DNA of 64,000 bases from a virus. The notes below the pieces were generated by a model. The model searched no databases. It worked only from the letters and a program-made list of their open reading frames with translations, and was not told the DNA's origin. Both the position numbers and the translations under genes were made by a program. Shown piece by piece: positions 26,601 to 61,828 of the stretch; position 1 is the stretch's first letter, and the number at the start of each line of letters is the position of its first letter. The stretch covers positions 28,859-92,858 of IMG/VR virus record IMGVR_UViG_3300006076_000002, one strand, 5' to 3'.

Positions 26601-29600
26601 TCTAGGTTCCGACACTGAGAACAACTTAGACACACTTTGGTGTTCAGTAGGCGTATCCTCCATCTCATGCTTGTTATCTTCTGTGTATATACCCAATGAA
26701 TCCTCAGTAGGTTCTAATACCTTTTCTAAGTCTGTAGTCATACCTTTATGTGCTTTAATCAGATCTTTAGCTGTAGTTGTCAAATTGTATGTAACTATAT
26801 CTGGTTTACCTGCATCTTTATCATTCTCATATATCATTGCAGCTGGAGTCTTATACCCTTTCTTAAACACCATTTCTTTCTTAAGTTTTATATCTCTATC
26901 TTTAGCATTTAGTATTATATACTCAGCTTTCTCTAACGCTAACATACCTAGCATACCTAACTCTGCTTTTAGTTTCTGCTCTATATACTCAGTATCTAAC
27001 CCTTCTGGTGCATCCTTTACAGCTTTAAGTCCTAGTGCTTTCCAAGCCTTATTACCTATAGTACTTGACACATAATCCATTATTCCATCAAAGTCTTTGA
27101 TTGACATTCTATCAGTCTGGCTTACCGGAGCATTTTTATCCATACCCTTCAACGCTCTTACTGCATTGTTGTCTCTACGTTCTGAGTCAAACTTAGCCAT
27201 ACTATCTGTCAACACTTCTACTGCGCTTGTTGCCAATGCCTCAGCTACCTTACCGTTTAACTCTAGTTTACCTTTATTAGCGAACTCACCTTCAGGCACT
27301 GTATATGCCATTAGCATTCTACTTACACTTTGGAATCCTTCTACACTATCTGTACCAAACCACACCATGTTAGCTCTTGCAGATGATAAGTCATTCTCTA
27401 CTACACTTTGTACACTTCCTGTCAATTTCTTTATAGTTACACCTGCAGTAAGCAAGTTCTTCTGTGCTACACTTGACAGTGTTTCCTTTTTCTGTGCTAG
27501 TAACTCTCTTAGCACATCTAAAGCTGTAGCATTTAAATTCTTAGGCTCTGTAGCAGCTTTGAAGAACTCGTGTAAGTAACCTTTGCCGTATGCAACATCT
27601 ACACCATTTTTAGCTTCAGTAACGTGATGGGATTTATTGTCAGCAGTCCATGCAAGTATACTACTAGCTACTTTGTTATCTCTTTCAGCTGTTTTATCTA
27701 TCAGTTCAGATTTCTTTTCTTTGATTGCAGCTTTGGTGTCTTTTACCTTATTATTAACCTCTTGCATTTGTAATATACGCTTTATGGTTTTCTTTCTAGT
27801 TTCTGTTAATTTTCGTTCTTTGCCTTGTGTTTGGTCTTTTATGAAATCTTTTTTATATTCAAGCTCATCTTTTTTAGCTACCTTTTTGTCAATAGCCTGT
27901 TGTATACTACTTTCTACTTTTTTGTTGGTAGTTTCAGCTAGTTTATTATACAACGCATCAACACTGCTATCTATGCTTGCTATATAGCTATTTATACGCT
28001 TTATACTAGCATTAGACTTTTCTAACTGTTTAGCTGTCCACATCCTAGTTTGTATGGCATTTCTGAGTATATGTCTTTTAGTATTTTTAAAGTTATACCC
28101 ATCTGTCAGTTTATCTAGTGTGTTCTGTTTCTCGTATACTTCTTTTTCTAGCTCTTTAATTTCAACCTCTAAATTGGCTATTTCTTTATCTATACCTGTT
28201 AGCTCTTCTTGCTTAGGTTTTGTGCTCTCTGTATTGCCTTGTCCAGTACTTTGTTCTGTTCCTGTAGTAGTGCTTTTTTCTTCTGTAACAACTTTAGTTT
28301 CTTCATTTTGTTTTGCATCTATTTTTCCTTTATTTAGTAATCCTAATTTTTTAAGCGCAAATACATTTGCATCTTTTTCATATAATGCAGGATCAGCAGT
28401 ATATTTTTTTCTGAACTCTTCTTTTCCGTATTTGCCTATCTGTTGTGTATGTCGATACTCGTGTAATAACAGAAATTTACGTATATCTTGTGGGCTTAGC
28501 TTACTTATCGTATCTAAGAAGTCTATACTATAGTCTTTATTTATGCTATCTGTAACCTGTTGTTTAGTAAGTATAACCTCTTTAGACTTTTCGTCTTTAA
28601 ACTCTCTATGAGTACTTAAGTAATCTAATACCTTTTTTGCTGTAATGTTCTTACTGAGTCTAATTTTACTACCGTCAGAAGAGGTACCAGCCAACTGTCC
28701 ATTAGAAGCATCTGCCGAGTAGTATCTAATAGGTATACCAGCTACAGTAGCTGTCTGTACATTCGCATTTTTCTCTTTTACTGCACCTTCTACGACAGGT
28801 GCAGCTTCCTCAACCTTTTGCTGCGTAGTTTCAGCTTGTTGTGGCTTACCTACCTCTAGTGTACCGTTGATAGTGTCTGTAGCTAAACTGTTTATGTCTT
28901 GTAGTAACTTGTACTCTTTCTCTAATTTTGCTGTAAACCCTTCAGACTTTTTACCGTCATACACGTACTTACTTCCAGGATAGTTCACATCTACTTTTAG
29001 TTTAGCTAGGTCATTTTTAGCTTTATCTAACCCTGCAGCATCTTTACCTATAGCCTCTAAGTTTTTGATAGTTTCACGTAAGTTATCAGCCTTCTCTTTA
29101 TACACTCTTTGAGCAGCTTTAAATGCATCCCTCTTCTCTGCTTGAGTACTCATAAACTTATTCATAGCTATTATTGCACTATCTCTAGCTGTATCTGATT
29201 GAGCGTTTATGACTGCATCTAGGTGTTCTAGCATCCCTAGTTTTCGCTTACCTTTGTACTCTCCACCAAGCAGCTTTAACGCTAACGATTCATTCTTATT
29301 AGCTTTATCTACTACCGTAACCCCATTAAAGTCTTTACTATGTACCAGATCACTAACCAATTTCTCAGCTTTCAGTTTAGCTAACTCTTTTACCTTTTCA
29401 CTTTTAACAGTTTCATCTGTTATATCAGCTAACTCTGTCTGAACTTCTGCCATATCCTTAGCTATTTCTTTAGGGTCCCTATTCCCTAATATTTCTGATT
29501 CACCATTTAGTTTACGTCTAAGGTTCAGAGCATCTTGCAGATGTTTAGTAACTAACTCTTTTTCAGTTATTATCTCTGGAGTACTGTCTAATGAATCTAA

Positions 29601-49212: not shown

Positions 49213-49422
49213 TCAGTTACCTTCACTAGGAGCCGTACTCCAATTACTTTTAACTACCCAACCTAACACACCAAATACGCTTGTGTATATAGCACCAACA
49301 GCTACTTCACCTACTTCTTTTATCTGTTGTAAGTATTCAGGTCTAGTCATATTCCATGCTAAGTATATAAAGAATACTATGATAGTGTACCTTACTGCTA
49401 TTTTTATATCTGACCTATTCAT
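49213..49422 (-). CDS. putative holin
   Basis: 69 aa, two TM segments, in lysis cassette. Confidence 0.55.
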   Translation of the reverse strand: MNRSDIKIAVRYTIIVFFIYLAWNMTRPEYLQQIKEVGEVAVGAIYTSVFGVLGWVVKSNWSTAPSEGN

Positions 49423-49763
49423 TGTATTGCCATTAAATCTTCAATAGTTTTTTGTTTTCCGTAACTAAAGTATTTACTACCAAATAATCTCACAGCTTTA
49501 TAGTAGGTATAAGCCCACACACTGTAGTATACTCGTTTAATTAAGCAATCTTCGTTTGCAGTGTCTAGTTGCATGTAGCTATAAAACGCATCATCTGCTT
49601 TTTTTCTATCTTCCTCTACACCGCCTTTCCAGTAAAGGAAGTCATGGTGGTCACATGATGCGTGAAATAGAAACTCAGGTGGATTAATAAACCCACCTTT
49701 TCCACCGCATCCATTACATATCTTAGTTTTTTGTTCTGGTGTTAAGTCTCTATAATGCAACAT
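49419..49763 (-). CDS. DUF1353/phospholipase-A2-like helical protein
   Basis: CNGCG...CDHHDFLY...RKKADDAF...YYKAVRLFG. Confidence 0.6.
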   Translation of the reverse strand: MLHYRDLTPEQKTKICNGCGGKGGFINPPEFLFHASCDHHDFLYWKGGVEEDRKKADDAFYSYMQLDTANEDCLIKRVYYSVWAYTYYKAVRLFGSKYFSYGKQKTIEDLMAIQ

Positions 49764-49764
49764 C

Positions 49765-50217
49765 TTATACCTCTATTGCATCTAACTCGTCTTGAGTAGT
49801 GCAGGCTTTAATAGCATCTCTCTTTGCTACCATAACACCTTCCCTTTGAGCTAAATAATTTACTTTTGCAAGTATAGAAGCAACATATTCCGCCTTAGTT
49901 ACAGTACCGTTATAACCAAGCAAGATATTATCTAGTATAGGTGTTGGAGAAGCACTGTCTAAGTCATAAGCTAAAGCTTCTCTCTTTTTGTCTTCAAATG
50001 TTGCTACTTCACTTTGTGGGTACTGAGCCAAGTAAGTATCGTATTCTTCTTGATATTTATCTTGAAGCTGTTTGATTTTTTGTTGTTTGAGTTCTTCAAG
50101 TGTTGGTGTTATCACAACCTCTGGCACTAACTCCCAATCTGAACTATCAACTCTATTGTCTATAAATTCTTGACTTGCTACAATTATATTACCTGTTTTT
50201 ATGTTTCTAAACTTCAT
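49765..50217 (-). CDS. tail fibre assembly chaperone-like protein (module 2)
   Basis: C-terminal half closely similar to 52441..52947 (KIKQLQDKYQE.YDTYLA.YP.SEVA.F...IKACTTQDELDAI.V). Confidence 0.65.
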   Translation of the reverse strand: MKFRNIKTGNIIVASQEFIDNRVDSSDWELVPEVVITPTLEELKQQKIKQLQDKYQEEYDTYLAQYPQSEVATFEDKKREALAYDLDSASPTPILDNILLGYNGTVTKAEYVASILAKVNYLAQREGVMVAKRDAIKACTTQDELDAIEV

Positions 50218-50218
50218 A

Positions 50219-50977
50219 TTAGTTATCCTTTATGTAAATTATTAAGGCAAAACCACTTGCCCCATCGGCACTTGCATAATACTCTCTGCACCCACTCCCA
50301 GCTCCTAGTATTGGAGGAGGTGGTGTTTGCGCACCAGCATCCCCACCATTAGCTAGTAGTGACCTTGCTCCTCCACTTTGCCATCTTGTACTATCACTAT
50401 TATTGTTGTTACCGTTTGTAAATCCAAAATTGTTATGTGTAGTGTCCAATAGTAGCTGTAATTCTTTTGAAGTATATACTTTTGTCGCTCCATTCTTATC
50501 AACCCCATCAGGAGCAAATAGTAAAGAAGGTTCATTGATAGATATGTATGAACCATCGGTAACGCCCACACCCCCGTTTTGTATTGATGCTGTAGAAAAA
50601 TAATCCCCAAATTGACTTATATCCCCTGCATTACCATCAGTTTTAGCAGTATCACTACCGTTCCCATCAACACCTGCACCACCTGCACCGATTGTTATAT
50701 CTATGGAATCGCCCTTAGCTAGAAATAAAGATTTTACAACCATATCACCACATCCACCACCAGTCCCATCACAATTATCAGCATTCCCAACAGCGGCACC
50801 AGAGCCTCCTCCACCGCTCAAAAAGACCAAATATCTTCCATTGTTTGGTACTGTCCAAGTTACAGAAGTATCTACTAATATAGAATATGTATTTATCTTC
50901 AAATAGTTAAATAGTGTATTTGTCAAATCATTTTTTACCTTATCAGAACCACCCATAAAATCTGTAAAATTACTCAT
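50219..50977 (-). CDS. glycine-rich tail/receptor-binding protein (module 2)
   Basis: WTVP...GGGGSG...ITIGAGGAG...G.ISQFG Gly-rich domain; start refined to the TAATG overlap. Confidence 0.7.
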   Translation of the reverse strand: MSNFTDFMGGSDKVKNDLTNTLFNYLKINTYSILVDTSVTWTVPNNGRYLVFLSGGGGSGAAVGNADNCDGTGGGCGDMVVKSLFLAKGDSIDITIGAGGAGVDGNGSDTAKTDGNAGDISQFGDYFSTASIQNGGVGVTDGSYISINEPSLLFAPDGVDKNGATKVYTSKELQLLLDTTHNNFGFTNGNNNNSDSTRWQSGGARSLLANGGDAGAQTPPPPILGAGSGCREYYASADGASGFALIIYIKDN

Positions 50978-52431
50978 TATTTTATCCTCCAATCCCCATT
51001 AATATAAATAAGTTCAAAACTTATGTTTTTTGTATCTACTACCATATCTTCAGCCAACCCCATTATAAGTTTTCCATTTCTTAGTATTGTTAGAGCATTT
51101 GTATCAAACATACCTTTAAAGTCTAAGAAACCTATTACACTGTTCTCTAGTGGTGTAGATGGCAGTGTTATGGTAATAGGACCTACTTTGTTCTCTACAG
51201 TAACAACTACTTGCATATTACCGTTAACGCTCACAGTAAATGCAGTTCCAGCCGTATTAGCCGTAAGCAATATAGTGGAACTACCTGAATCAGTTGCTGT
51301 TACATTATCATCAGATATCGCATCCAGTATACCATTAATTATGTCTTGAACAGTATCGGGTGGCACATTATCTGTTGTAGTAGATGTAGAGATGTTATCT
51401 GTATTTGTTGTACTGCTATCTATAACAACAGTTTGAGGTACACCAGCTGTAACGGCAGTTATTGTTACGTTACCATTACCATCACTTTCACCGTTCGATA
51501 TTAAATCAGCTATACCGTCACCAATAGACCCAACTGTAGAATCTGTACCAGCAGTATAGCTATATACAGTTCCATCTACATCTACTGCGTACACATCTCC
51601 ATCTACTGCTGTACCTACTACAACAGTGTCTACTTGTGCAACAGGGGTTGTTGAGGTATAGGTATAATCTGTACCATTTATGGTAACAGCGTAATCTGTA
51701 CTATCTACTACTACTATACCACTAATAGTATCTACTTGTGCTATACTTTCTGTATCTACGAATGAATACTCTTTAGCATTTACAGTTTTATCAGCAGTAA
51801 CTGTTGAGTACACAAACGCATTACCACCTGTAACTACCATCCAATCACTACTAATAAGGCTTGGAGTGCTAGTATTACTTGCAATCTTACTTATGTAAAA
51901 GTACTCATCAGTGTAACTGATAGTATCACCTATTGCGTATCCATTACCACTATTATAGTCACTTACCCAGTCACCTTTATAGTTAGCGGAACTTTGTGCT
52001 ATCTGTGCATTACCGTAAGCATCTTGTATAGCTGGCATATTAGTTACCACTGTATTAATGTTACTAGTATTATCTGCTACTGTAATGATGTCATCTTTAA
52101 TATCTAGTATACCCTGTACATTATCCGTAGCTGTAACTATATCTACTGCAGATATCATATAACTGATTGTTGCTACCACGCCTGAATCAAGCACTACACT
52201 CAAATCGGTACTGGCGCCTAGGTTGATCTTATCAGCCACAGCTAGTGTAGCTCCAGTAGCTATAGTCTCTGTGAATACAATAGTACCGTTAACTTTCACA
52301 GTTGCACTAGCATCTGCTCCGTTAGGGTTGTAAAACAGTATACTATATACTACATTTTCCTCTGTCGATGTACCAGAGATAGCAGTTAACTCTGTGCCAT
52401 CTCCGGTTATCGATACTGATCTGAATGCCAT
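50977..52431 (-). CDS. tail fibre/adaptor protein (module 2) with two nested domains
   Basis: Paralog of 53561..54451 (ANYKGDW, ITLP..P, RNG.LI.GL.ED, NGDWR). Confidence 0.75.
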   Translation of the reverse strand: MAFRSVSITGDGTELTAISGTSTEENVVYSILFYNPNGADASATVKVNGTIVFTETIATGATLAVADKINLGASTDLSVVLDSGVVATISYMISAVDIVTATDNVQGILDIKDDIITVADNTSNINTVVTNMPAIQDAYGNAQIAQSSANYKGDWVSDYNSGNGYAIGDTISYTDEYFYISKIASNTSTPSLISSDWMVVTGGNAFVYSTVTADKTVNAKEYSFVDTESIAQVDTISGIVVVDSTDYAVTINGTDYTYTSTTPVAQVDTVVVGTAVDGDVYAVDVDGTVYSYTAGTDSTVGSIGDGIADLISNGESDGNGNVTITAVTAGVPQTVVIDSSTTNTDNISTSTTTDNVPPDTVQDIINGILDAISDDNVTATDSGSSTILLTANTAGTAFTVSVNGNMQVVVTVENKVGPITITLPSTPLENSVIGFLDFKGMFDTNALTILRNGKLIMGLAEDMVVDTKNISFELIYINGDWRIK

Positions 52432-52440
52432 TATGCTCTC

Positions 52441-52947
52441 CTATACTTGAATTGCATCTAACTCATCCTGAGTAGTGCAAGCTTTAATTTGGTCTCTAAT
52501 TTCTACCATAGCTCCCTCTTTACCAGCTAAGTACAGTACCTTATTTAGGACTGACTGGATATACTCTTCTTTGGCTGTAGAAGGCATACTAGCTACAATA
52601 GCATCTATTATAGGAGTAGGTGAAGTATTATCTAAGTTGTAAGCTAAAGCTTCTTTCTTTTTATCCGGGAATGATGCTACTTCTGACTTAGGGTATTTAG
52701 CTAAATAAGTATCATAGTCTTCTTGATATTTATCTTGTAATTGTTTTATTTTAGCTTGCTTTTGTTCATCTAATGTCAGAGGTGACGGTAAAATAAAATT
52801 AGAACCATTGTAAGTGTCTCCAATACTTGGCAATGTTGCTAAATTCGTTACATCAATCATTACTATTGTGTTGTCAAACTCCGGTAGCACTTCATACTCG
52901 AATACTCCGTGTACTTTATTATTCACTATTTGTGCATATTTTTTCAT
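52441..52947 (-). CDS. tail fibre assembly chaperone-like protein (module 1)
   Basis: MKKYAQI.NNKV...PSIGDTYNG..F..P; ATGA-coupled start at 52947. Confidence 0.65.
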   Translation of the reverse strand: MKKYAQIVNNKVHGVFEYEVLPEFDNTIVMIDVTNLATLPSIGDTYNGSNFILPSPLTLDEQKQAKIKQLQDKYQEDYDTYLAKYPKSEVASFPDKKKEALAYNLDNTSPTPIIDAIVASMPSTAKEEYIQSVLNKVLYLAGKEGAMVEIRDQIKACTTQDELDAIQV

Positions 52948-53561
52948 TTTACTTGCTCCAATACTATACAAATTCCATCAGTTCCTGCACCGTTCGCTGT
53001 TCCACCAACCCCATAAGGTCTTGGACCTGCACCACCGCCGCCTGAATCACCATCTGCTGGCTCTCCTTGGAAAATTAGAGTATCACTTGTACCATCAAGT
53101 AAGAATGAAGACGTTGAAATAACTAGTAGATTAGAGATAATTTGAGGTACAACATAAATTCCACCATTTCCTGCACCATTACCATTTCCTGCAGCCCCGT
53201 TACCACCACCATTTACACCTATACTTCCACTGTCAGTTCCGACATTTCCTCCTATTGCACTTAAGTATGTCCCAAAAGACGTTGTACCACCAGAGGAGCC
53301 AGCAGCACCTCCAGTACCTATAGTTACATCTACTGATTCTCCTTTTGAAAGCGTAACTTTTTTTATTAAAAACCCGGAACCAGAACCTCCGTCATAATAC
53401 GATTCATCTGAACTACCGCCTCCACCTCCACAACAAACAATAATATAGTCTCCTGCGTAAGGGGCAACATATGTAGAATTTGTTGTTATCTCTGCAGCTT
53501 TTAATGAGAATGGATACACCACTCCTCCAGAACCACCTAAGTATTCTGTTATACTACTCAT
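52944..53561 (-). CDS. glycine-rich tail/receptor-binding protein (module 1)
   Basis: GGGGG...VTIGTGG...GGTTSFGTYLSAIGG...G.DGICIV. Confidence 0.7.
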   Translation of the reverse strand: MSSITEYLGGSGGVVYPFSLKAAEITTNSTYVAPYAGDYIIVCCGGGGGSSDESYYDGGSGSGFLIKKVTLSKGESVDVTIGTGGAAGSSGGTTSFGTYLSAIGGNVGTDSGSIGVNGGGNGAAGNGNGAGNGGIYVVPQIISNLLVISTSSFLLDGTSDTLIFQGEPADGDSGGGGAGPRPYGVGGTANGAGTDGICIVLEQVK

Positions 53562-54451
53562 TATCTCACCCTCCAATCACCATTTACAAACATCAATTCC
53601 ATACTCAATCCTTTTTTATCTAATGTTAAGTCTTCATCTAATCCAACTATTAAGTTACCGTTTCTAGCTACTGTAACATTGTTAGTATCAAAGCTGTCTT
53701 TCACGTCCATGAACCCTACTATATCAAAGTTAGCTGGACTTGCTGGTAGTGTAACTGTGAATGCTGCTGAAGTAGTATCTGCTAGTACGTAATCAAACAC
53801 ACTTGCTGTATAATCATCACTCTCTTCAACGTACTTGTATGCACTATCCTGATTGAATTTCCAGTTAGCGTCACTTGTGAAGTCTACCGGGCTAGCCGTA
53901 TTTGCATCTATCTTGCTTACATACGTTCTACCATTGAATGTAACTGAGTCACCTACCGCATACCCATCTATATAAGTATCATTCCAGTCACCTTTATAGT
54001 TAGCACTAGCTTTAGCACTATCTGCATATACTATTGCTTTATCTATGTTGTTCAGGTCTGCTGCTACTGCATCTAAATTGCTTTTATCTGCGTACAATAC
54101 ATCTATTGAAGGTTTCAAGTCTACAACTGTTTGTACTGTACTGTTTACTGATACTACATCAGCTGCTTGCAGCAAGTAGTTACATGTAATGTTTACTGCT
54201 GTACCTGCTACCACATCTAATGTGCTAGACGTATTTAAGTTAATTTTATCTGCTAGTTTTACACTTGCACCTGCGTCAACATCCACTTTATACACTGTTG
54301 TGTCATTTATCTGAAACTCTACTGTTTCAACTGCAGTACCACTGTTATACAGAAATATACTGTAAACTACTACTTCATTAACATCATTGGTAGTAACTAA
54401 GTTAACCGGTGTAGAATCATTACCTACTTTATATGAGCTTTTGAATGCCAT
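53561..54451 (-). CDS. tail fibre/adaptor protein (module 1)
   Basis: YAVGDSVTFNGRTYVS carbohydrate-binding-like segment; uninterrupted C-terminal DTTSAAFTVTLPASP...DWR domain. Confidence 0.75.
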   Translation of the reverse strand: MAFKSSYKVGNDSTPVNLVTTNDVNEVVVYSIFLYNSGTAVETVEFQINDTTVYKVDVDAGASVKLADKINLNTSSTLDVVAGTAVNITCNYLLQAADVVSVNSTVQTVVDLKPSIDVLYADKSNLDAVAADLNNIDKAIVYADSAKASANYKGDWNDTYIDGYAVGDSVTFNGRTYVSKIDANTASPVDFTSDANWKFNQDSAYKYVEESDDYTASVFDYVLADTTSAAFTVTLPASPANFDIVGFMDVKDSFDTNNVTVARNGNLIVGLDEDLTLDKKGLSMELMFVNGDWRVR

Positions 54452-54460
54452 ATGTAACCC

Positions 54461-54703
54461 CTATCCAAGTACGATAGCCATAGCTACCGCTTGCTGTTTA
54501 CCTGTAGCTTCTACTACAGCTAATCTACTTTGCACTTCAGACTCTAAGTCAGCTACTGTAGTATCTACATTTGTCATTTTGACATCTACATCTGCTAATT
54601 TAGTATCTACCGTGTTTGTCAGTTCATTAGATTTTGTCTCAAACTCGTCTAAGAACTGTTGACGTGTGAACTTTTGTGTAACTGATTTATAACTAATAGC
54701 CAT
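54461..54703 (-). CDS. small coiled-coil tail connector
   Basis: Heptad pattern ending AVAMAIVLG; TAATG start at 54703. Confidence 0.6.
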   Translation of the reverse strand: MAISYKSVTQKFTRQQFLDEFETKSNELTNTVDTKLADVDVKMTNVDTTVADLESEVQSRLAVVEATGKQQAVAMAIVLG

Positions 54704-57700
54704 TATTCGAATCTCCAATCATTATCTACACATACTAGTTCTATGTGCATGTTATCTACATCTAGTACGAGGTCATCTGCATTGCCATGTATTAATGCAC
54801 CGTTTCTATGCATAACTACATTATCAGTAGCGAAGTCACCTTTATCATCAACTATTTGTACAATTATACCATCTTCCGGGTTAGAAGGCAAGGTAATGTT
54901 TCTACATCCAGGTTGATTAGCTACTACGCTAGTTAATGACATGTTACCTTTAACTAAGGATATATCATACCCTACACCTGCTGTTTCAGCTGTAATAGTT
55001 ACCTCATTATTTTCATTAGTTGCTGTTAATTTTGAATTACCTAGATTATTAATAGCATCTGTCATACCTAGTACAATTTCTGCTAGTGTAGCTTCATCAG
55101 CTGAGTGTTCTGTTATATCCATATCTCCAGCACTAATAGTAACCGTTTGATCTTGATCATGGTCATCTGAAGATATAGTTAAGTACGTAGTCTTATCTAC
55201 TGCAGTCACAGGTTCACTTAATGCGTTAATTGCATCTACTAAACCAGCGGTAATTTCCCCTAGTTCGGCTTTCTCTGCTGCAGTAATTAGTGTTATTACT
55301 ACGTCATCACTATCCGTTGTGCTAAATGGGTCACCAGCATTACTTCCAGTCAGCTTTACTTTACTATCTACTATAGTTGCTACTACTGGTACGGAACTAT
55401 TATTAACTGCATCCTTCAATCCGCTTAGTATTTCATCTAATGTGGCTGTGTTATTAGCTCTAACAATAGCTGTACTCATTTGTCCTGATACGATATCTAA
55501 TGTAAACGCTACGCCTGCTACATCCGCTTCAACAAGTACTACGCCTGAACTTACTACAGAGGCAGTAACATCTGCACTTGTATTACTATCATTATTGATT
55601 GCATCTACCAACCCTTGAGTTATTTCTGCTTCTGTAGCTTTATCCGCTTCTACAGTTGTACTTACTTCCATATCACCATTAGACACTGAAGATGTAAACG
55701 CCTCACCTGCAGTATTACCTTCTATTTTTACATCCATATTATCAGCAGAGGCTGTAACTACTGCGCTAGTATCTGAGTCATTATTTATAGCATCTACCAA
55801 TCCATCCCTAATTTCGTCAACTGTAGCGTCATCATCTGAAGTATAACTAACTTCTGTACCAGCTATAATGATAGAGTACAATGCACTATCTGCTGCCGTT
55901 ATAGAAGTTATCTTATCTATCTGTGCTACTGCTGCATCTGATACGTATGCTACCTCATTACCATTAATGCTTACCTTATACGAAGTGCTATCTTCTACTG
56001 TAATACTGTCAATATTGTTTTGCTGTGCCACATCATCACTTGATACATAGCTAATTGTTGTATTATCAATACCAAACTCATAGTTATGGCTACTTTGTAC
56101 ACTCTGCACTTCTGCATCACTTACTTGTGCTACCAGTGGATCTGAGTGATATGTTGCATCTGTACTATTAACACTAATTGTGTAATCACTATCATGTGCA
56201 ACTGTGATGTTATTCACTGTGAATGTTTGATTAACGTACGCATCTGACGTATATGCAGCACTTTCCCCGTCAATGCTAACTTCGTATGTTGATCCATTCT
56301 CTGCTACTATGCTAGTTAATGTATCTTGCTGTGTTGTAGCTGTACTATCACATAGTACTAAGGATGTAGTATCTACTGTAATGTCACTATTTGCATTGAT
56401 TACTGTCTTACCTGTACCGTTAGTTACTTTGAAGTACGATAAGTCTCCATTATCCAACAGCACTTTATAGGTGTCTGTAGCATTCAACTTACCAGCAGTA
56501 CCACTTGGGTCTGTTGTAGTGTAGAACGTAACTGAAGCTATTCCTGGACCTGTATCACCTTTATCCCCTTTACCGAATGGTATTGCATTACTCCAGTCTC
56601 CTGACGTATCACTACGTTTAATATATAGCTCACCTGTATCTGTAGCTAGGAATGAGAAGTCTTTAGGCTGCCCATCGAAGTTATCTCTTTCAGCTAATGT
56701 TCCAGTCGCATTTACATTGAATGCATCACCTCTATCACCTTTAGGTCCTTGAGGAATACCTAGTATTAACTTGTTACCGTTCGAGTCATATGAAACACTA
56801 GCTGCACTTCCAGCTGTCAGTGTTAATGCATCTGCACCTAATGTGTGAATACTATTAGCTTGCGCTGTAGCAGTATCCGCTGCTGTCTGTGCTTGTTGGG
56901 CTGAAGCCGCTGCATTCTGAGCATTAGTTAATGATGCTAGTACCTCAGTGAGATTATCTACTACTGTTTGTATCTCTGCTTCTTTATCTGCAACTGTTTG
57001 TAAAGCGTTATTGTCAATCTTGCTAACTACTTTATCGATGTTACCGTTATCGATATTGTCTACTAATTTAGTCACATTACCGTTATCCACTTCTGTAACT
57101 ACTTTAGCTATATTACCAGCATCGATGTTACTTACTATCTTAGCTACTGATCCGTCATCCACTACTGTTACTATCTTACTTACATTACTATTAGTTATAT
57201 TATTGTATACAGTAGTTAACATATTCAAGCTATTTGCAATTTGCAATAGTATACTATTAGTACTACCCAACTGGATATCATCTGCTAGTGTTTTAATCTT
57301 TGATGAAGCATCCTGCAAGTCAGTTGCTACTGTAGTAGTGTAATTAGTACCACCTGCTTTTACATCATTATACAGCACTGTGAAGTTCGATATCTCTGCA
57401 TATAGGCTTTCTAGCTTATCTATGTTGCTGTATAAACTATCTGTATTTACTGTTAATCCACCTAGGTTGCTTTGTAGTAGTAATAACTCATCAATCTTAC
57501 TAGCTAGTGATACGATACTATTTATTTGTGCACCTATTGATATCAACTCAGATACCCTATTCGATAGTACCTCTAGTGATGATGTAGTTTGTGCCCAGTA
57601 GTACTCTTCCACATTCTTAGAAATATAATGCAGTAGCTCAATACGTAGGAACGTAGCAGTCTTACCGTCTGTATCATACAATCTAACTATTGTAGGCTTA

Positions 57701-58239
57701 TCTACTATTGTTTCATTCAGTAGTTCATACTCTACGTTAACTACATGTTTAAACTCATCTGGCTCATTTGCGTTATAATCCATAATTGCATCTTTAATAT
57801 GCTGTAGTATTACCGATGGTGACTCTGTTTCATTAACTACTGTTGTACCCGGTGCATAAAATGGCCACTCAATTGTAACCCCATCCTGCGTAACTATGTT
57901 TACTTGCTCAAACTTAGGAGCTACTCCATCCTCACCAATCAGCTTGGATAAGTCAATATCTATCTTTCTATTACCTAGGTAGTTACCTTTAGCTAAGTCT
58001 TGTGTAATCTCAATCAAGTTAGCTGTAGATAAGTCTGCTAGTGTCTGCGCAGATAGTGTAGTTAAGTTCTGTAGTGCAGCTGCCAGTACACTGAAGTCTA
58101 CTCCTGTACCTAGTTCATTAGCCAGTGTAACTACATCATTAATGTTTTTAGCTACTAATTCTACCTGATCGTATTTACTATTCAGCTGCTCACTGATAAC
58201 AGCTTCAATGTTACTGTTTAATATTGGTGTAATTGCCAT
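54703..58239 (-). CDS. long tail fibre/appendage protein with collagen-like triplets and five nested domains
   Basis: Coiled coils, GPKGDRGD and GKGDKGDTGPG, repeated YTSD and EI..GL.DAIN units; C-terminal ITLP...RNG...DWR domain. Confidence 0.8.
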   Translation of the reverse strand: MAITPILNSNIEAVISEQLNSKYDQVELVAKNINDVVTLANELGTGVDFSVLAAALQNLTTLSAQTLADLSTANLIEITQDLAKGNYLGNRKIDIDLSKLIGEDGVAPKFEQVNIVTQDGVTIEWPFYAPGTTVVNETESPSVILQHIKDAIMDYNANEPDEFKHVVNVEYELLNETIVDKPTIVRLYDTDGKTATFLRIELLHYISKNVEEYYWAQTTSSLEVLSNRVSELISIGAQINSIVSLASKIDELLLLQSNLGGLTVNTDSLYSNIDKLESLYAEISNFTVLYNDVKAGGTNYTTTVATDLQDASSKIKTLADDIQLGSTNSILLQIANSLNMLTTVYNNITNSNVSKIVTVVDDGSVAKIVSNIDAGNIAKVVTEVDNGNVTKLVDNIDNGNIDKVVSKIDNNALQTVADKEAEIQTVVDNLTEVLASLTNAQNAAASAQQAQTAADTATAQANSIHTLGADALTLTAGSAASVSYDSNGNKLILGIPQGPKGDRGDAFNVNATGTLAERDNFDGQPKDFSFLATDTGELYIKRSDTSGDWSNAIPFGKGDKGDTGPGIASVTFYTTTDPSGTAGKLNATDTYKVLLDNGDLSYFKVTNGTGKTVINANSDITVDTTSLVLCDSTATTQQDTLTSIVAENGSTYEVSIDGESAAYTSDAYVNQTFTVNNITVAHDSDYTISVNSTDATYHSDPLVAQVSDAEVQSVQSSHNYEFGIDNTTISYVSSDDVAQQNNIDSITVEDSTSYKVSINGNEVAYVSDAAVAQIDKITSITAADSALYSIIIAGTEVSYTSDDDATVDEIRDGLVDAINNDSDTSAVVTASADNMDVKIEGNTAGEAFTSSVSNGDMEVSTTVEADKATEAEITQGLVDAINNDSNTSADVTASVVSSGVVLVEADVAGVAFTLDIVSGQMSTAIVRANNTATLDEILSGLKDAVNNSSVPVVATIVDSKVKLTGSNAGDPFSTTDSDDVVITLITAAEKAELGEITAGLVDAINALSEPVTAVDKTTYLTISSDDHDQDQTVTISAGDMDITEHSADEATLAEIVLGMTDAINNLGNSKLTATNENNEVTITAETAGVGYDISLVKGNMSLTSVVANQPGCRNITLPSNPEDGIIVQIVDDKGDFATDNVVMHRNGALIHGNADDLVLDVDNMHIELVCVDNDWRFE
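57001..57189 (-). repeat. about five 12-aa repeats (VDxGNxxKxVxx) in the tail fibre
   Basis: VDDGSVAKIVSN/IDAGNIAKVVTE/VDNGNVTKLVDN/IDNGNIDKVVSK. Confidence 0.7.
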
Positions 58240-58880
58240 TATTCAAATCCTTTAGTTTTAATTCTATCATACATCTCTACAGATTCCGTTGAAAACATAC
58301 CATCCATTTCAATGCGTTTAACACTCAGCTCGAATCGCTGGTAGTGTGTGTTACTTTCTGCTTGTATATTTCCATTTACGCTTCCATGACCTCTGTACCC
58401 TATATAGTTCAACAATGCTTCTAGCATCTGATCAGGTATAGGCAATCGTTCATCCAACGTCTCCATAGTAACTAACGTGGGGCTAGCTACATACACTAAT
58501 GAGTATATATCACCTACTTCGATGTTATCTATCTGCACTGTGTCATATCCAATTGTATTAACTGAATTAGCTACTTCATCGCTGTTTATTTCTAGAAACT
58601 CTACATGAGAAGGATCAGTCATATCATACTGTGTTAAATCTTTAATCTTAACTTTATAGTGATATGCAGCTAATAACCACATGTAATCTGCAGGCATCTT
58701 ATATTTATCCACATTAGCAATACCTTCAATCAGGTACTCTTTAGTCTCGATAGGGAATCTTTTATATAATTCAATTAACCCTAAATTGATAAACCCTATT
58801 ACGGCATTAATATCATCTTTAACGGCAATTGTCTTTAGTTCACCATTCTGTGCTAGCGCTATCACTTCATTAGCTGTCAT
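58239..58880 (-). CDS. head-tail adaptor (N4 gp67-like)
   Basis: GELK...INLGLIELYKRF...EALLNYIGYR...KGF; directly after TerL. Confidence 0.75.
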   Translation of the reverse strand: MTANEVIALAQNGELKTIAVKDDINAVIGFINLGLIELYKRFPIETKEYLIEGIANVDKYKMPADYMWLLAAYHYKVKIKDLTQYDMTDPSHVEFLEINSDEVANSVNTIGYDTVQIDNIEVGDIYSLVYVASPTLVTMETLDERLPIPDQMLEALLNYIGYRGHGSVNGNIQAESNTHYQRFELSVKRIEMDGMFSTESVEMYDRIKTKGFE

Positions 58881-58904: not shown

Positions 58905-58926
58905 ATTATACCATAATTCTACTAAA
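58905..58926 (-). promoter_or_regulatory. promoter TTTAGT-N10-TATAAT (TGn extended -10)
   Basis: Variant of window-wide motif. Confidence 0.5.
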
Positions 58927-61828
58927 ATATTAAACTACTATTGTAATCCTCATCATCGTCATCCTCACTAAAATCTTCACCCCATACACCGGACACTTTT
59001 GGTAGTGCATCAACATTAGGTGCACTATTGGAAGGGTTTATGTAATCTATCAAAGCTAGCTGTGACATACAATCTAAGAAGTCATCATGAAGAGAATTAT
59101 GAATAACTACCCCATTTTCTACAGTAAAATTATTAGCCTTATCTACAGATAAATCATATACTAACTCTCTCTTTCTCTTCACTATTTTTACGATCGAAAC
59201 GCTTACGACACCTAGTTCCGCAGAATCTTGATTCAACATCAACTTTTGTATAATAGGTTCCTCCACATTCTTCACATCTATGTTCATATTTCTGTTTACT
59301 TCTATTTGTTTTTGCACATTCTTCACTGCAGAACTTTCGTTTACTGTTTTTGAAGATTTCATAGCCTGTTCCACACTCCAAACACTTTCGTATTTCCAAT
59401 TTTGACCTACTTCGTTGGTACTCATGCTGTTTGTAGCACTCTGTTGAACAAGTCTTTTGATTTGGTGCCTTTTGCTTGAATTCATTACTACATATAATAC
59501 AAGTTTCCACACCCAAAGGTTTATAGTCTGGATTAACTCTTTTATTTCTATCACGCTCTCTGCACTGTGATGAGCAGAATTTTGTACCATCTTTGTCTGT
59601 GTCTTTGAGTGTAAACTCTTTTTCACACCAAACACAAACCCTCTTCTTATTTCCTTTAAGTCTTGTACGACGTTTCCTAATACCTTCATACTCCCCAGCT
59701 TTAGCTTGTTTAGCCAATTTACATAGCTTTTCTTGTTCTTCTGGAGTTCTGTTGTAGTAGTGCCTGTCTTCATCGTTTGCGTGATGCTCTTGGTGAGCAG
59801 AGCGTGATAATAATTCAAGATTATTTGGGCTGTTATCTTCCTTGTTATGGTTCTTGTGGTGAACATCCATACCTTTAGGTATATCCCCTTTAGTTTGTTT
59901 ATAGACGTATCTGTGTAACCAATCCCTACTCGCTCCAATCTTGGTTGTAGATTGATAATACCCTGACTTTTTTCTTGTCCATTTGTATCCACCGTATTCA
60001 ATTTGTTCCATGTTATATCTCCAGTTACTAATTTATCTGATACACCTAAATCACACACCTTCTTATACCCTGTTGTAGTAAGCACTTTGTGTTCTGCTGT
60101 TAAGTGCATTACACCAGTTTCAGTGTATATACTATACGTATCTTTTATACCTGTAAGTATAACATCAGTAACCTTAAAGTTTGCTACGTATCCTTGGTAT
60201 TGGGACACTACATTATCACCTATCCTTACATCTCTAATACTGATAAGTCCTTTATCTGTGAACACTTTAGTATCTGCTGATACACATCCCACTCCGGACC
60301 TACTCGTCTTTCTTATCTCCTCTAACGCTTCTTTCATAGCAGGACTATCTTCTAACTCTTTAGGGAATTTTATCTTATTTAGTTCGAAGTCAGGAAGCAC
60401 TCCTCTTAACCTCTCCATTTTATTCCCTTGACCCTTACTACGTATACCCACTTGGTTAGGGGATTTACCCTTCTGTCTTGCATACCTAAACCATATGTTC
60501 TTCTCAATCATCATAGCATCTAATCTGTTTATGTTTAACTGCTGTTGTCCATCTATTTCTATTCCTACCTCTAAGCTAGCTCCTTTACTACCCCATCGAC
60601 TAACTAGTTTAAACAGTGCTTCATACTGCTCCTGAATTGTACATTGTTCTAGAAACAAATCTATCAGGTATTTATCATCATTAGCGTTTATCGCCCATAC
60701 CGCTATACCACTATAGTCACCCTTCTTAGTGTTACCCGCTGTAAAGTCGGTAGTGATAACTATGGAGAAGTTCTGTATGTTCTTAACTATTAAGCTACGA
60801 GTATCATACCAACTGAGCATATATTCAGGTATTAATCTCTCAGCCTCTGAACTAATTTGTAACATTCGCTCTTGCTGAAAACTTTGTAATTCACCACTTT
60901 GTACTGCAGACTGGTATTGCTTAAGTATAGATTCAGGAGTATGCATAGCAGGCCACATGCTTTTTATGTCTTTTACTTTAGTGTCTTTATCTATATGTTC
61001 ACATATTGGAAATAACATAGGAGTATATACTCCACCAACCAACATAGACCATACTATATCACTTTCTGTAAAAGGTGTAGCTACTGATATTACATAGTTA
61101 TCTGTACCTGCTTCTAAAGCATTTAAGATATCACTGTATACTATAGTTTTTAATTGGTCCATTATAGTCTCTGAGTAAGCAGCTGCACTTGATGGGATTA
61201 TGTCATCTAGCAAGAATGCAGAAGGTCTTCTACCGTAACTGTCTCGAATACCACGGATACCACCAGACCATCCGACGTTACGCATTAGAAATGTCCTATC
61301 CGCTTTGGATCCTGGACCTTTACGTACTAATTCTATTTCCGTTTCAGTTGTTCTAATCTCTTCAAAGTAATTCTGACAAAATATGCTTTCATTGACCATG
61401 GAACCTAAAGTTTTACTTATAACCCTTGCTCCCCCTTGAGCCGAAGCACTGACAGAAGTTATAAAAGGTATTTTCTTACCGTTAGGCATACCTCCTTTGA
61501 TAGCTAAGTACAAAGGAAGGAAAGCGGTAAGTAAAGTAGATTTTGCACCACCACGGGAAGCTACAACAGCTATTCTGTGAGGGTCTACATTAATAGTGCT
61601 CTGCACTTCTTTAGAGTACGGGAACTGCTCTGCTTTAACTTTACCAAATACTACATCAATAGCGAAGTAATGCCAAGTAGGGGTAGTTACTAGAAAATCC
61701 TGACCATATACAAGCCTCATTAAGTTAAAAAACTCTAGAGACTCTTCACTGGGGGTGTATCCTGGAAAATCATAGTTTATTGTTTTTAGTGCTTCATCAG
61801 CATTAAATTTTTCCTTTAAATTACCCAT
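58922..61828 (-). CDS. terL: terminase large subunit precursor containing an intein (spliced product ~571 aa)
   Basis: Walker A SRGGAKST, Walker B FLLDD, nuclease TTDF...DYS and HDDFLD motifs. Confidence 0.93.
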   Translation of the reverse strand: MGNLKEKFNADEALKTINYDFPGYTPSEESLEFFNLMRLVYGQDFLVTTPTWHYFAIDVVFGKVKAEQFPYSKEVQSTINVDPHRIAVVASRGGAKSTLLTAFLPLYLAIKGGMPNGKKIPFITSVSASAQGGARVISKTLGSMVNESIFCQNYFEEIRTTETEIELVRKGPGSKADRTFLMRNVGWSGGIRGIRDSYGRRPSAFLLDDIIPSSAAAYSETIMDQLKTIVYSDILNALEAGTDNYVISVATPFTESDIVWSMLVGGVYTPMLFPICEHIDKDTKVKDIKSMWPAMHTPESILKQYQSAVQSGELQSFQQERMLQISSEAERLIPEYMLSWYDTRSLIVKNIQNFSIVITTDFTAGNTKKGDYSGIAVWAINANDDKYLIDLFLEQCTIQEQYEALFKLVSRWGSKGASLEVGIEIDGQQQLNINRLDAMMIEKNIWFRYARQKGKSPNQVGIRSKGQGNKMERLRGVLPDFELNKIKFPKELEDSPAMKEALEEIRKTSRSGVGCVSADTKVFTDKGLISIRDVRIGDNVVSQYQGYVANFKVTDVILTGIKDTYSIYTETGVMHLTAEHKVLTTTGYKKVCDLGVSDKLVTGDITWNKLNTVDTNGQEKSQGIINLQPRLERVGIGYTDTSINKLKGIYLKVWMFTTRTITRKITAQIILNYYHALLTKSITQTMKTGTTTTELQKNKKSYVNWLNKLKLGSMKVLGNVVQDLKEIRRGFVFGVKKSLHSKTQTKMVQNSAHHSAESVIEIKELIQTINLWVWKLVLYVVMNSSKRHQIKRLVQQSATNSMSTNEVGQNWKYESVWSVEQAMKSSKTVNESSAVKNVQKQIEVNRNMNIDVKNVEEPIIQKLMLNQDSAELGVVSVSIVKIVKRKRELVYDLSVDKANNFTVENGVVIHNSLHDDFLDCMSQLALIDYINPSNSAPNVDALPKVSGVWGEDFSEDDDDEDYNSSLIF
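59096..60286 (-). mobile_element. intein, 397 aa (Cys515-Asn911 of the precursor)
   Basis: Block A CVSADTKVFTDKG, block B LTAEHKVLT, block F VYDLSVDKANNF, block G VVIHN|S. Confidence 0.93.
59154..60011 (-). CDS. HNH endonuclease with four CxxC...C(S/G)xxC zinc fingers, nested out of frame in the intein
   Basis: WLHRYVY...IPKGMDVHHKNHNKEDNSPNNLELL...H; own RBS GGAG-N7-ATG and own TGA. Confidence 0.88.
   Translation of the reverse strand: MEQIEYGGYKWTRKKSGYYQSTTKIGASRDWLHRYVYKQTKGDIPKGMDVHHKNHNKEDNSPNNLELLSRSAHQEHHANDEDRHYYNRTPEEQEKLCKLAKQAKAGEYEGIRKRRTRLKGNKKRVCVWCEKEFTLKDTDKDGTKFCSSQCRERDRNKRVNPDYKPLGVETCIICSNEFKQKAPNQKTCSTECYKQHEYQRSRSKLEIRKCLECGTGYEIFKNSKRKFCSEECAKTNRSKQKYEHRCEECGGTYYTKVDVESRFCGTRCRKRFDRKNSEEKERVSI

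Follow-up and report, generated by a model that had tools for sequence, protein, structure and literature searches.

The locus examined here raises the question of how a tail fibre can be built when it carries five copies of one short repeat, followed by five copies of a second repeat, all inside a single C-terminal domain. The window, by which is meant the whole 64,000-nucleotide stretch of DNA that was analysed, covers positions 28,859 to 92,858 of IMG/VR virus record IMGVR_UViG_3300006076_000002. The full record is 92,858 bp long and has direct terminal repeats and a completeness estimate of 100%. The gene in question (54703..58239, minus strand) encodes P0001, a long tail-fibre protein of an N4-like phage with 1178 amino acids (aa), in which aa 535-590 match the PHROGs family phrog_17587 'tail fiber protein' with an E-value (E) of 1.4e-10. 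The answer favoured by the data, and one that appears quite probable from the sequence comparisons, is that five copies of one domain, here called AB, are nested within one another in a loop of the fibre's C-terminal host domain, where they would form a stacked arm.

The repeat block of P0001 consists of five A units of 34 aa each (aa 635-804) and then five B units of 59-63 aa (aa 805-1112). Hidden Markov models (HMMs) of the units resolve the protein into AAAAABBBBB, each unit having an E-value between 1e-16 and 4e-30, and comparison of the protein with itself gave offsets of 34, 68, 102 and 136 within aa 635-751 and of 59-64, 118-127, 179-186 and 243-245 within aa 798-993. Together these confirm the order of five first halves followed by five second halves that had been proposed from the letters of the DNA and their translations (hereafter the sequence-only reading). 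That reading also held that only the innermost pair is contiguous, and there is indeed a single contiguous A|B junction in P0001, at aa 804|805 (nucleotides 55827/55828, previously put at about 55830). The innermost pair matches the full AB profile and has the layout of contiguous AB domains in other proteins. As for the extent of the block, the end at 56337 stands, but the unit coordinates place the start at 54904 and not at 54907. The units and arrays are as follows.

55828..56337, minus strand: A1-A5 array, seen as period-34 diagonals and by HMM (E 1e-16 to 2e-17)
56236-56337, minus strand: A1
56134-56235, minus strand: A2
56032-56133, minus strand: A3
55930-56031, minus strand: A4
55828-55929, minus strand: A5
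54904..55827, minus strand: B5-B1 array, seen as diagonals at 59-64 and by HMM (E 1e-24 to 4e-30)
55639-55827, minus strand: B5
55450-55638, minus strand: B4
55270-55449, minus strand: B3
55093-55269, minus strand: B2
54904-55092, minus strand: B1
55639..55929, minus strand: innermost complete AB domain, A5+B5 (aa 771-867), matched by the full 95-position AB profile (E 3.8e-37)

The block lies inside another domain. The host domain of P0001 is split between VLCDSTA (aa 628-634) and RNITLP (aa 1113), and the corresponding hairpin is unbroken in the paralogous short fibre P0003, which bears out the earlier claim that a C-terminal domain interrupted in the long fibre is continuous in the gene at 53561..54451. 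No A or B units were found in P0003 by the unit HMMs or the AB profile. A second short fibre, P0002, carries a nest of two levels according to the unit HMMs, so that paralogs with zero, two and five levels are present in one genome. When the whole record was searched with the AB profile, there were 9 matches within the P0001 gene, and the A and B units of the record (7 of each) were confined to P0001 and P0002.

56338..56442, minus strand: N-terminal part of the P0001 host domain (about aa 600-634), ending in VLCDSTA and aligning with the strand before the hairpin in P0003
54706..54903, minus strand: C-terminal part of the P0001 host domain (aa 1113-1178), RNITLP...DWRFE, homologous to the C-termini of P0002 and P0003
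53561..54451, minus strand: P0003, paralogous short fibre of 296 aa with an uninterrupted host domain (level 0)
50977..52431, minus strand: P0002, paralogous short fibre of 484 aa with a two-level nest in the order A1 A2 B2 B1
51643-51744, minus strand: A1 of P0002
51361-51642, minus strand: A2+B2 of P0002
51178-51360, minus strand: B1 of P0002

In the arrangement proposed for P0001, the hairpin of the C-terminal host domain would receive the first copy, whose A|B loop would take in the second, and so on down to the fifth. Successive insertion into this loop makes the chain run out and back, so that it would pass outward through A1-A5, turn at the contiguous A5-B5 junction and return through B5-B1 to close the host domain. 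Each A_i would fold with its B_i, and the five copies would stack as a rod-like side arm, one for each subunit of what is presumably a trimeric fibre. Because two passes of the chain would join neighbouring copies, the arm should be stiffer than a tandem array, and the host domain would stay intact and terminal and should thus still be able to dock a partner. New levels would be added at the tip, as suggested by the close likeness of the two innermost levels, which exceeds that of all others (A4-A5 and B5-B4), and by the innermost position of the extra levels seen in relatives. The P0001 units share only 24-41% similarity. Their likeness at the DNA level is weak, and the copies are old; the best DNA match (73% over 88 nucleotides) is between the starts of B5 and B4, which again fits with growth at the tip.

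That A and B belong together as one domain is indicated by their relatives. A 95-position profile built from the window units only (profile A1) was searched against 1.84 billion representative proteins and matched 1802 proteins at E<=1e-3, of which 324 reached 1e-10 and 19 reached 1e-30. The number of matches and the retention of the 5+5 layout in orthologs at 41-79% identity show that the pattern is no product of chance. Layouts were parsed for the best 150 of the 1802 matches plus homologs found earlier (165 proteins), among which the commonest layout was a contiguous AB, either singly or in tandem. In total, 286 contiguous AB pairs were found in 159 of 172 proteins, so that A plus B is one domain of about 95 residues. 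A homolog search using a word index and a 14-row alignment found only 9 proteins.

The more demanding question is whether each A_i is paired with the B_i that nesting would assign to it. In P0002 the answer comes from single-domain relatives. The single domains of P0006, P0008 and P0010 match A1 of P0002 (scores of 99-124, versus 72-78 for A2) and also B1 (128-171 versus 53-72 for B2), which together are the outer pair, and P0007 matches the inner pair, with scores of 121 versus 79 for A2 and 138 versus 69 for B2. The same comparison was extended to 26 proteins, that is, 30 parsed proteins less four five-level orthologs that were dropped so that kin would not be counted twice. Where assignments were confident, A and B pointed to one level in 143 of 193 comparisons, which are not mutually independent, against 92.4 expected, and where both best scores were at least 100 the level assignments of A and B agreed in 29 of 32 against 15.7 expected.

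Differences in length between relatives point the same way. A global alignment of P0049 (three levels) with P0106 (two levels) is colinear except for aa ~161-256 of P0049, which are A3+B3 and lie at the A2|B2 junction, and P0031 (two levels) differs from P0090 (one level) by aa 128-220, which are A2+B2. Judging from these single-block differences, a level comes or goes as one entire contiguous domain, and does so in the innermost place.

Additionally, the compatibility of A and B units was scored by a log-odds model over the most covarying A-B column pairs, trained on contiguous pairs with the five-level family excluded. Summed over P0001 and P0016-P0019, which are five of the eight five-level fibres, the scores put the nested order at rank 1-2 of 120 possible orders with K=10, 20, 30, 50, 100 or 200, and at 1-2 of 24 when the innermost pair was fixed. 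For P0001 alone the ranks were 1-4 of 120 and 1 of 24, respectively, and for proteins with three and four levels they were mostly 1-2 of 6, with P0040 at 3-13 of 24. When the training partners were shuffled (20 trials), the nested order ranked anywhere from 5 to 117. The signal is carried by levels 2, 4 and 5. Matrices of A similarity versus B similarity, averaged over seven five-level fibres, placed the nested order at 2 of 120 and the parallel order at 70. The claim of the sequence-only reading that each domain was inserted into the same loop of the previous one is therefore supported by layer-congruent homology, by the gain or loss of AB blocks at the A|B junction and by the compatibility rank of 1-2 of 120.

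Nesting can also be examined through the number of units, by reading each A as an opening bracket and each B as a closing bracket, so that a pure nest has the form A^nB^n. When proteins were read unit by unit, 23 pure nests were found and all 23 were balanced:

n=2 (9 proteins): P0002, P0004, P0011, P0012, P0031, P0041, P0054, P0092, P0106
n=3 (5 proteins): P0030, P0032, P0039, P0049, P0084
n=4 (1 protein): P0040
n=5 (8 proteins): P0001, P0016-P0021, P0027

Three of the 23 had a unit that was weak or escaped the family HMM; the missing unit was seen by the P0001-derived HMM in P0020 and P0021 and at a permissive threshold in P0027. Seven further proteins from other samples, with 41-79% identity to P0001, keep the order of five A followed by five B. 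All eight long-fibre orthologs have five levels, and short fibres have from zero to four. The constancy in the long fibres fits with a constraint on size, though it is no proof of one, and the tuning of appendage length by nesting, as put forward in the sequence-only reading, stays a hypothesis. Beyond the pure nests, P0064 was parsed as a balanced tree, AABABB. P0034 is a balanced tree only if one weak unit (E 3) is counted and is otherwise unbalanced, and P0085 is one only by manual reading of the sequence, the parser having called it unbalanced.

Two side observations concern nests and additional AB domains in relatives. The 1392-aa flagellin P0105 has, within aa 556-1078, five near-identical copies of a first strand followed by five near-identical copies of the remainder of the domain. 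This is also a 5+5 layout, but the split falls after strand 1 and is unlike that at the A|B loop, which suggests that a second loop can be used for nesting in the same way. Three long-fibre orthologs, P0017, P0018 and P0019, possess one more AB domain, also contiguous, towards the N-terminal end (aa ~141-237); in the matching part of P0001 (about aa 100-190) no AB was detected by the HMMs.

Several results weigh against nesting, and they have to be considered together with the other explanations that could account for the block. One such explanation is that A and B form two independent tandem arrays, with A making a beta structure of its own, such as a trimeric beta shaft, and B a separate string of alpha/beta domains, without any pairing between them. 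It is common for tail fibres to have short beta repeats whose folding takes place in the trimer only, and in P0001 the A and B units do sit in two separate, uniform arrays. The equality of counts is also not without exception. An automatic parser found 101 of 160 words to be directly balanced and 59 to be unbalanced; 33 of these are mended if a gap of fitting size is taken as a missed unit, and 26 are not. Among the 26 are fragments, giant proteins in which units are weak, and three five-level fibres whose second A escaped the family HMM. As the 34-aa A model is weak, the parser count mostly measures detection, and the claim about counts rests on the 23 pure nests. P0157, a relative of P0085 with 558 aa, is the one clear exception, since within aa ~178-460 it keeps two long A-like units without a B partner, followed by a normal AB AB. 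The expectation that homologs would have equal numbers of A and B halves thus holds for every pure nest from n=2 to n=5 but fails for the unmatched A units of P0157. Against independent arrays stand the equal counts of the 23 pure nests and the occurrence of A and B as contiguous halves of one unit in the 286 pairs of 159 proteins. Furthermore, the split pairs of P0002 match the contiguous single domain of one and the same relative, A with A and B with B, and differences between relatives remove one A and one B jointly. The block also interrupts a hairpin of the host domain, so its two ends must meet. Independent arrays are therefore considered improbable.

It could also be that the pairing is real but not nested, either because the units pair in parallel register (A1 with whichever B comes first along the chain) or because they are swapped between subunits of the trimer. 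In favour of this, levels 1 and 3 are not separated in the compatibility matrix, several permutations score near the nested order in P0001 alone, and swapping between chains is invisible in sequence. Weighing against nesting more generally, the similarity of A and B units within P0001 alone ranks the nested order only 4 of 120, conservation of A and of B is uncorrelated from level to level (rank 33 of 120), and the congruence of levels is weaker at lower similarity (143 of 193, with 92 expected). Whereas 22 A-B column pairs covaried above the maximum seen when all partners were shuffled, a control in which partners were swapped within proteins was beaten by only 3. Most of the A-B covariation is a family-level or lineage signal and not one of contact, yet being inherited together still speaks for A_i and B_i as the two halves of a single domain. 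Against a pairing that is not nested, the nested order ranks at or next to the top for the family, and the parallel order sums to about -473 in the compatibility matrix, where the nested order reaches -251 and all orders average about -417. A5 and B5 are contiguous exactly as in ordinary AB domains, and the outer pair of P0002, A1...B1, is a contiguous domain elsewhere. Pairing without nesting is thus judged to be at least as improbable as independent arrays, if not slightly more so. Finally, the record is that of an uncultured virus, and repeats are prone to mis-assembly, so an artefact of assembly or gene calling in a repetitive metagenomic contig was considered. With units only 24-41% similar there are almost no repeats at the DNA level, and hence nothing to collapse or scramble in assembly; the same 5+5 order recurs in the seven proteins from other samples, and the reading frame is open over 1178 codons. 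An artefact is accordingly given almost no chance. On the evidence given for each, all three explanations were rejected.

The site of insertion recurs in relatives. Among the 12 two- to four-level relatives listed, the nest is preceded by a '..DT..' flank as in P0001 in 9, and 9 nests occupy the same hairpin in the same host domain. Reading of the sequences showed flanks like those of P0001 in P0002, P0004, P0012 and the long fibres, and the nests of P0032, P0054 and P0011 are inserted in other hosts. P0011 is a homolog that its source labels Thiomicrorhabdus sp. A profile including the C-terminal part of P0001 gave a weak match (E 0.0037) to residues 101-165 of TSP4-N of phage CBA120, which lie in its domain XD1, and P0003 alone gave E-values of 0.045-0.16, the alignments of both spanning 63-65 residues. 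In this weak match the host domain, with the unbroken hairpin included, aligns with residues 99-165, within XD1 (80-178). XD1 is described as a nine-stranded beta-sandwich resembling a domain of T4 gp9 (PMC8825819). XD1 is located near the N-terminus of tailspikes, whereas the host domain here is C-terminal, and possible kinship between the two is treated as a lead. Possibly the C-terminal host domain serves as a joint or for docking, and this would account for the placing of added mass in a loop and not at the end.

No Pfam family covers the AB repeats in the 13 proteins scanned. Among 10 AB-bearing relatives scanned against Pfam were a capsid cement protein (P0056, PF22758), the flagellin P0105, which has Flagellin_N and Flagellin_C ends, and a DUF4347/RTX-repeat protein (P0118). 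A profile that also includes short single-domain relatives (profile A4) matched, in the PDB, aa 91-209 of the sheath protein gp130 of phage phi92 (21vm_B, E 9.6e-7), gp76 of 9zdk (9zdk_S, E 1.3e-5) and the sheath of 8kee (8kee_A, E 3.6e-4); profile A1 gave 2.2e-5 for phi92 gp130 and 1.8e-4 for 9zdk gp76. The phi92 paper describes gp130 as a tail sheath protein with domains I-III. These profile matches make AB a relative of the domain that protrudes from contractile tail sheaths. By the pattern of its sequence, A would comprise three beta strands, and B one helix followed by another three or four. In a phage collection there was no DNA match to P0001, and protein matches were limited to aa 496-654, with none in the repeats. 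No match was confirmed in one scan of viral contigs, and another gave two weak loci (L001 and L002). The ESM Atlas held no model of P0001, and its feature matches were unnamed clusters, with crAss_AuxCP at 0.89 being a lead only.

Since AB is found on the sheath surface and in capsid cement proteins, flagellin and hook proteins and RTX adhesins, the likely role guessed for the nested copies of P0001 is that of an exposed arm at the end of the fibre, acting passively as a spacer or adhering weakly. A broader generalization, to which even chances are given, is that AB is an unnamed, widespread surface domain with a bracket grammar, in which one loop opens for a whole copy or for two tandem copies, and does so repeatedly. 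Stiff out-and-back arms would then be grown from a fixed hairpin of a fibre-joint domain, with whole domains added at the tip and their number fixed where the length of the arm matters.

The short fibres belong to a duplicated module (49765-53576, minus strand), in which each short fibre (P0003 and P0002) has behind it first a glycine-rich protein and next a phrog_2618 protein. The glycine-rich proteins match PF21722 Gly_rich_2 (E 3.3e-13 and E 1.6e-4, the latter just under the cut-off) and phrog_863 'tail fiber assembly', and these may be pairs of tip adhesin and chaperone. Just before the host domain, at aa 164-187 of P0003 and also in P0002, there is a sub-threshold match to CBM_5_12 (E 0.0078, 16.7 bits where 26.2 is the cut-off), and the relative P0006 carries a precomputed PF02839. 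The short fibres may, judging by these matches, bind polysaccharide.

Other genes in the window were noted in passing. Directly upstream of the P0001 gene is an open reading frame (ORF) of 213 aa (58239-58880, minus strand) with matches to the SU10 adaptor PF24175 (E 6.8e-8) and to phrog_2125 'virion structural protein' (E 4.6e-30). A 114-aa ORF (49419-49763, minus strand) comes close to the threshold for prokaryotic phospholipase A2 (PF09056, E 5.5e-6, 27.4 bits with the cut-off at 29.4) and weakly matches a tail assembly chaperone PHROG. The terminase large subunit (58922-61828, minus strand) has an intein-like insert, and inside it, in another frame, lies an HNH-motif ORF of 285 aa (59154-60011, minus strand).

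If the stack is real, phages own a simple modular route to a rigid side arm of set length that leaves the C-terminal end of the fibre domain unmoved. Levels 0, 2 and 5 are available from the paralogs of this genome and levels 1, 3 and 4 from relatives, and this series offers a natural test bed for the folding of discontinuous domains as well as a scaffold idea for engineered fibres. There are also consequences for annotation: arrays of A and arrays of B of this sort should not be taken for two repeat families, and nested domains will be missed by callers that expect contiguous ones. The AB domain of about 95 aa, being present on sheaths, capsid cement proteins, flagellins and adhesins, merits a family entry of its own.

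Nested domains are known from other systems, one of them an enzyme. In cyanobacterial RNA polymerase, Si3 is described as one domain family recursively inserted into itself over six levels (PMC13114784). As in P0001, copies of a small domain are inserted in one another, making chains of the type A1-B1-C-B2-A2 several levels deep, and a host can hold more than one insert. The class of protein is different, and probably the fold as well, and Si3 lies in a catalytic loop of an enzyme whereas the nest here lies in a hairpin of a virion fibre. The AB profiles match no RNA polymerase chain in the PDB and no sequence relation to the sandwich-barrel hybrid motif (SBHM) of Si3 was found. Also distinct from Si3 are the clean A^5B^5 series and the occurrence of paralogs with zero, two and five levels in one genome.

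Tail sheaths are the second point of comparison, and the likeness to sheath and flagellin domains drawn by the sequence-only reading was apt, as AB matches outer domains of sheaths by sequence (phi92 gp130, E 9.6e-7). In T4 gp18, domain I (aa 98-188), which is exposed and made up of a six-stranded barrel and a helix, sits within domain II, II within III and III within IV (PMC3004832), and the AB match in phi92 gp130 falls at a similar position in the chain. T4 gp18 itself was not matched by the AB profile in the PDB search, which makes its relation to AB positional only; by analogy, AB may share the barrel-plus-helix fold of domain I. No sheath gene was found in the window. Unlike the present case, the nested domains of sheaths are mutually unlike, with a single AB-like one, at the tip, whereas in P0001 the same domain is found five times inside itself.

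Flagellins provide the third. In the flagellin of Geovibrio thiophilus, domain D5 is a duplicate of D4 inserted in a loop of D4, which is one level of insertion (PMC11532411). This too is self-insertion of a surface domain, and the AB-bearing relative P0105 is also a flagellin. Unlike in P0001, there are two levels only. No sequence link between D4/D5 and AB was found, and this flagellin is absent from the PDB matches of both profiles (E<=10 and E<=1). A search of the literature on tail fibres and flagellins, without supplementary files, found no paper on self-nested domains in tail fibres. Self-nesting as such is therefore known from Si3 and from flagellin; here it would occur in a tail fibre and with a sheath-related domain, and the particular value of the locus lies in the series of zero, two and five levels within one genome.

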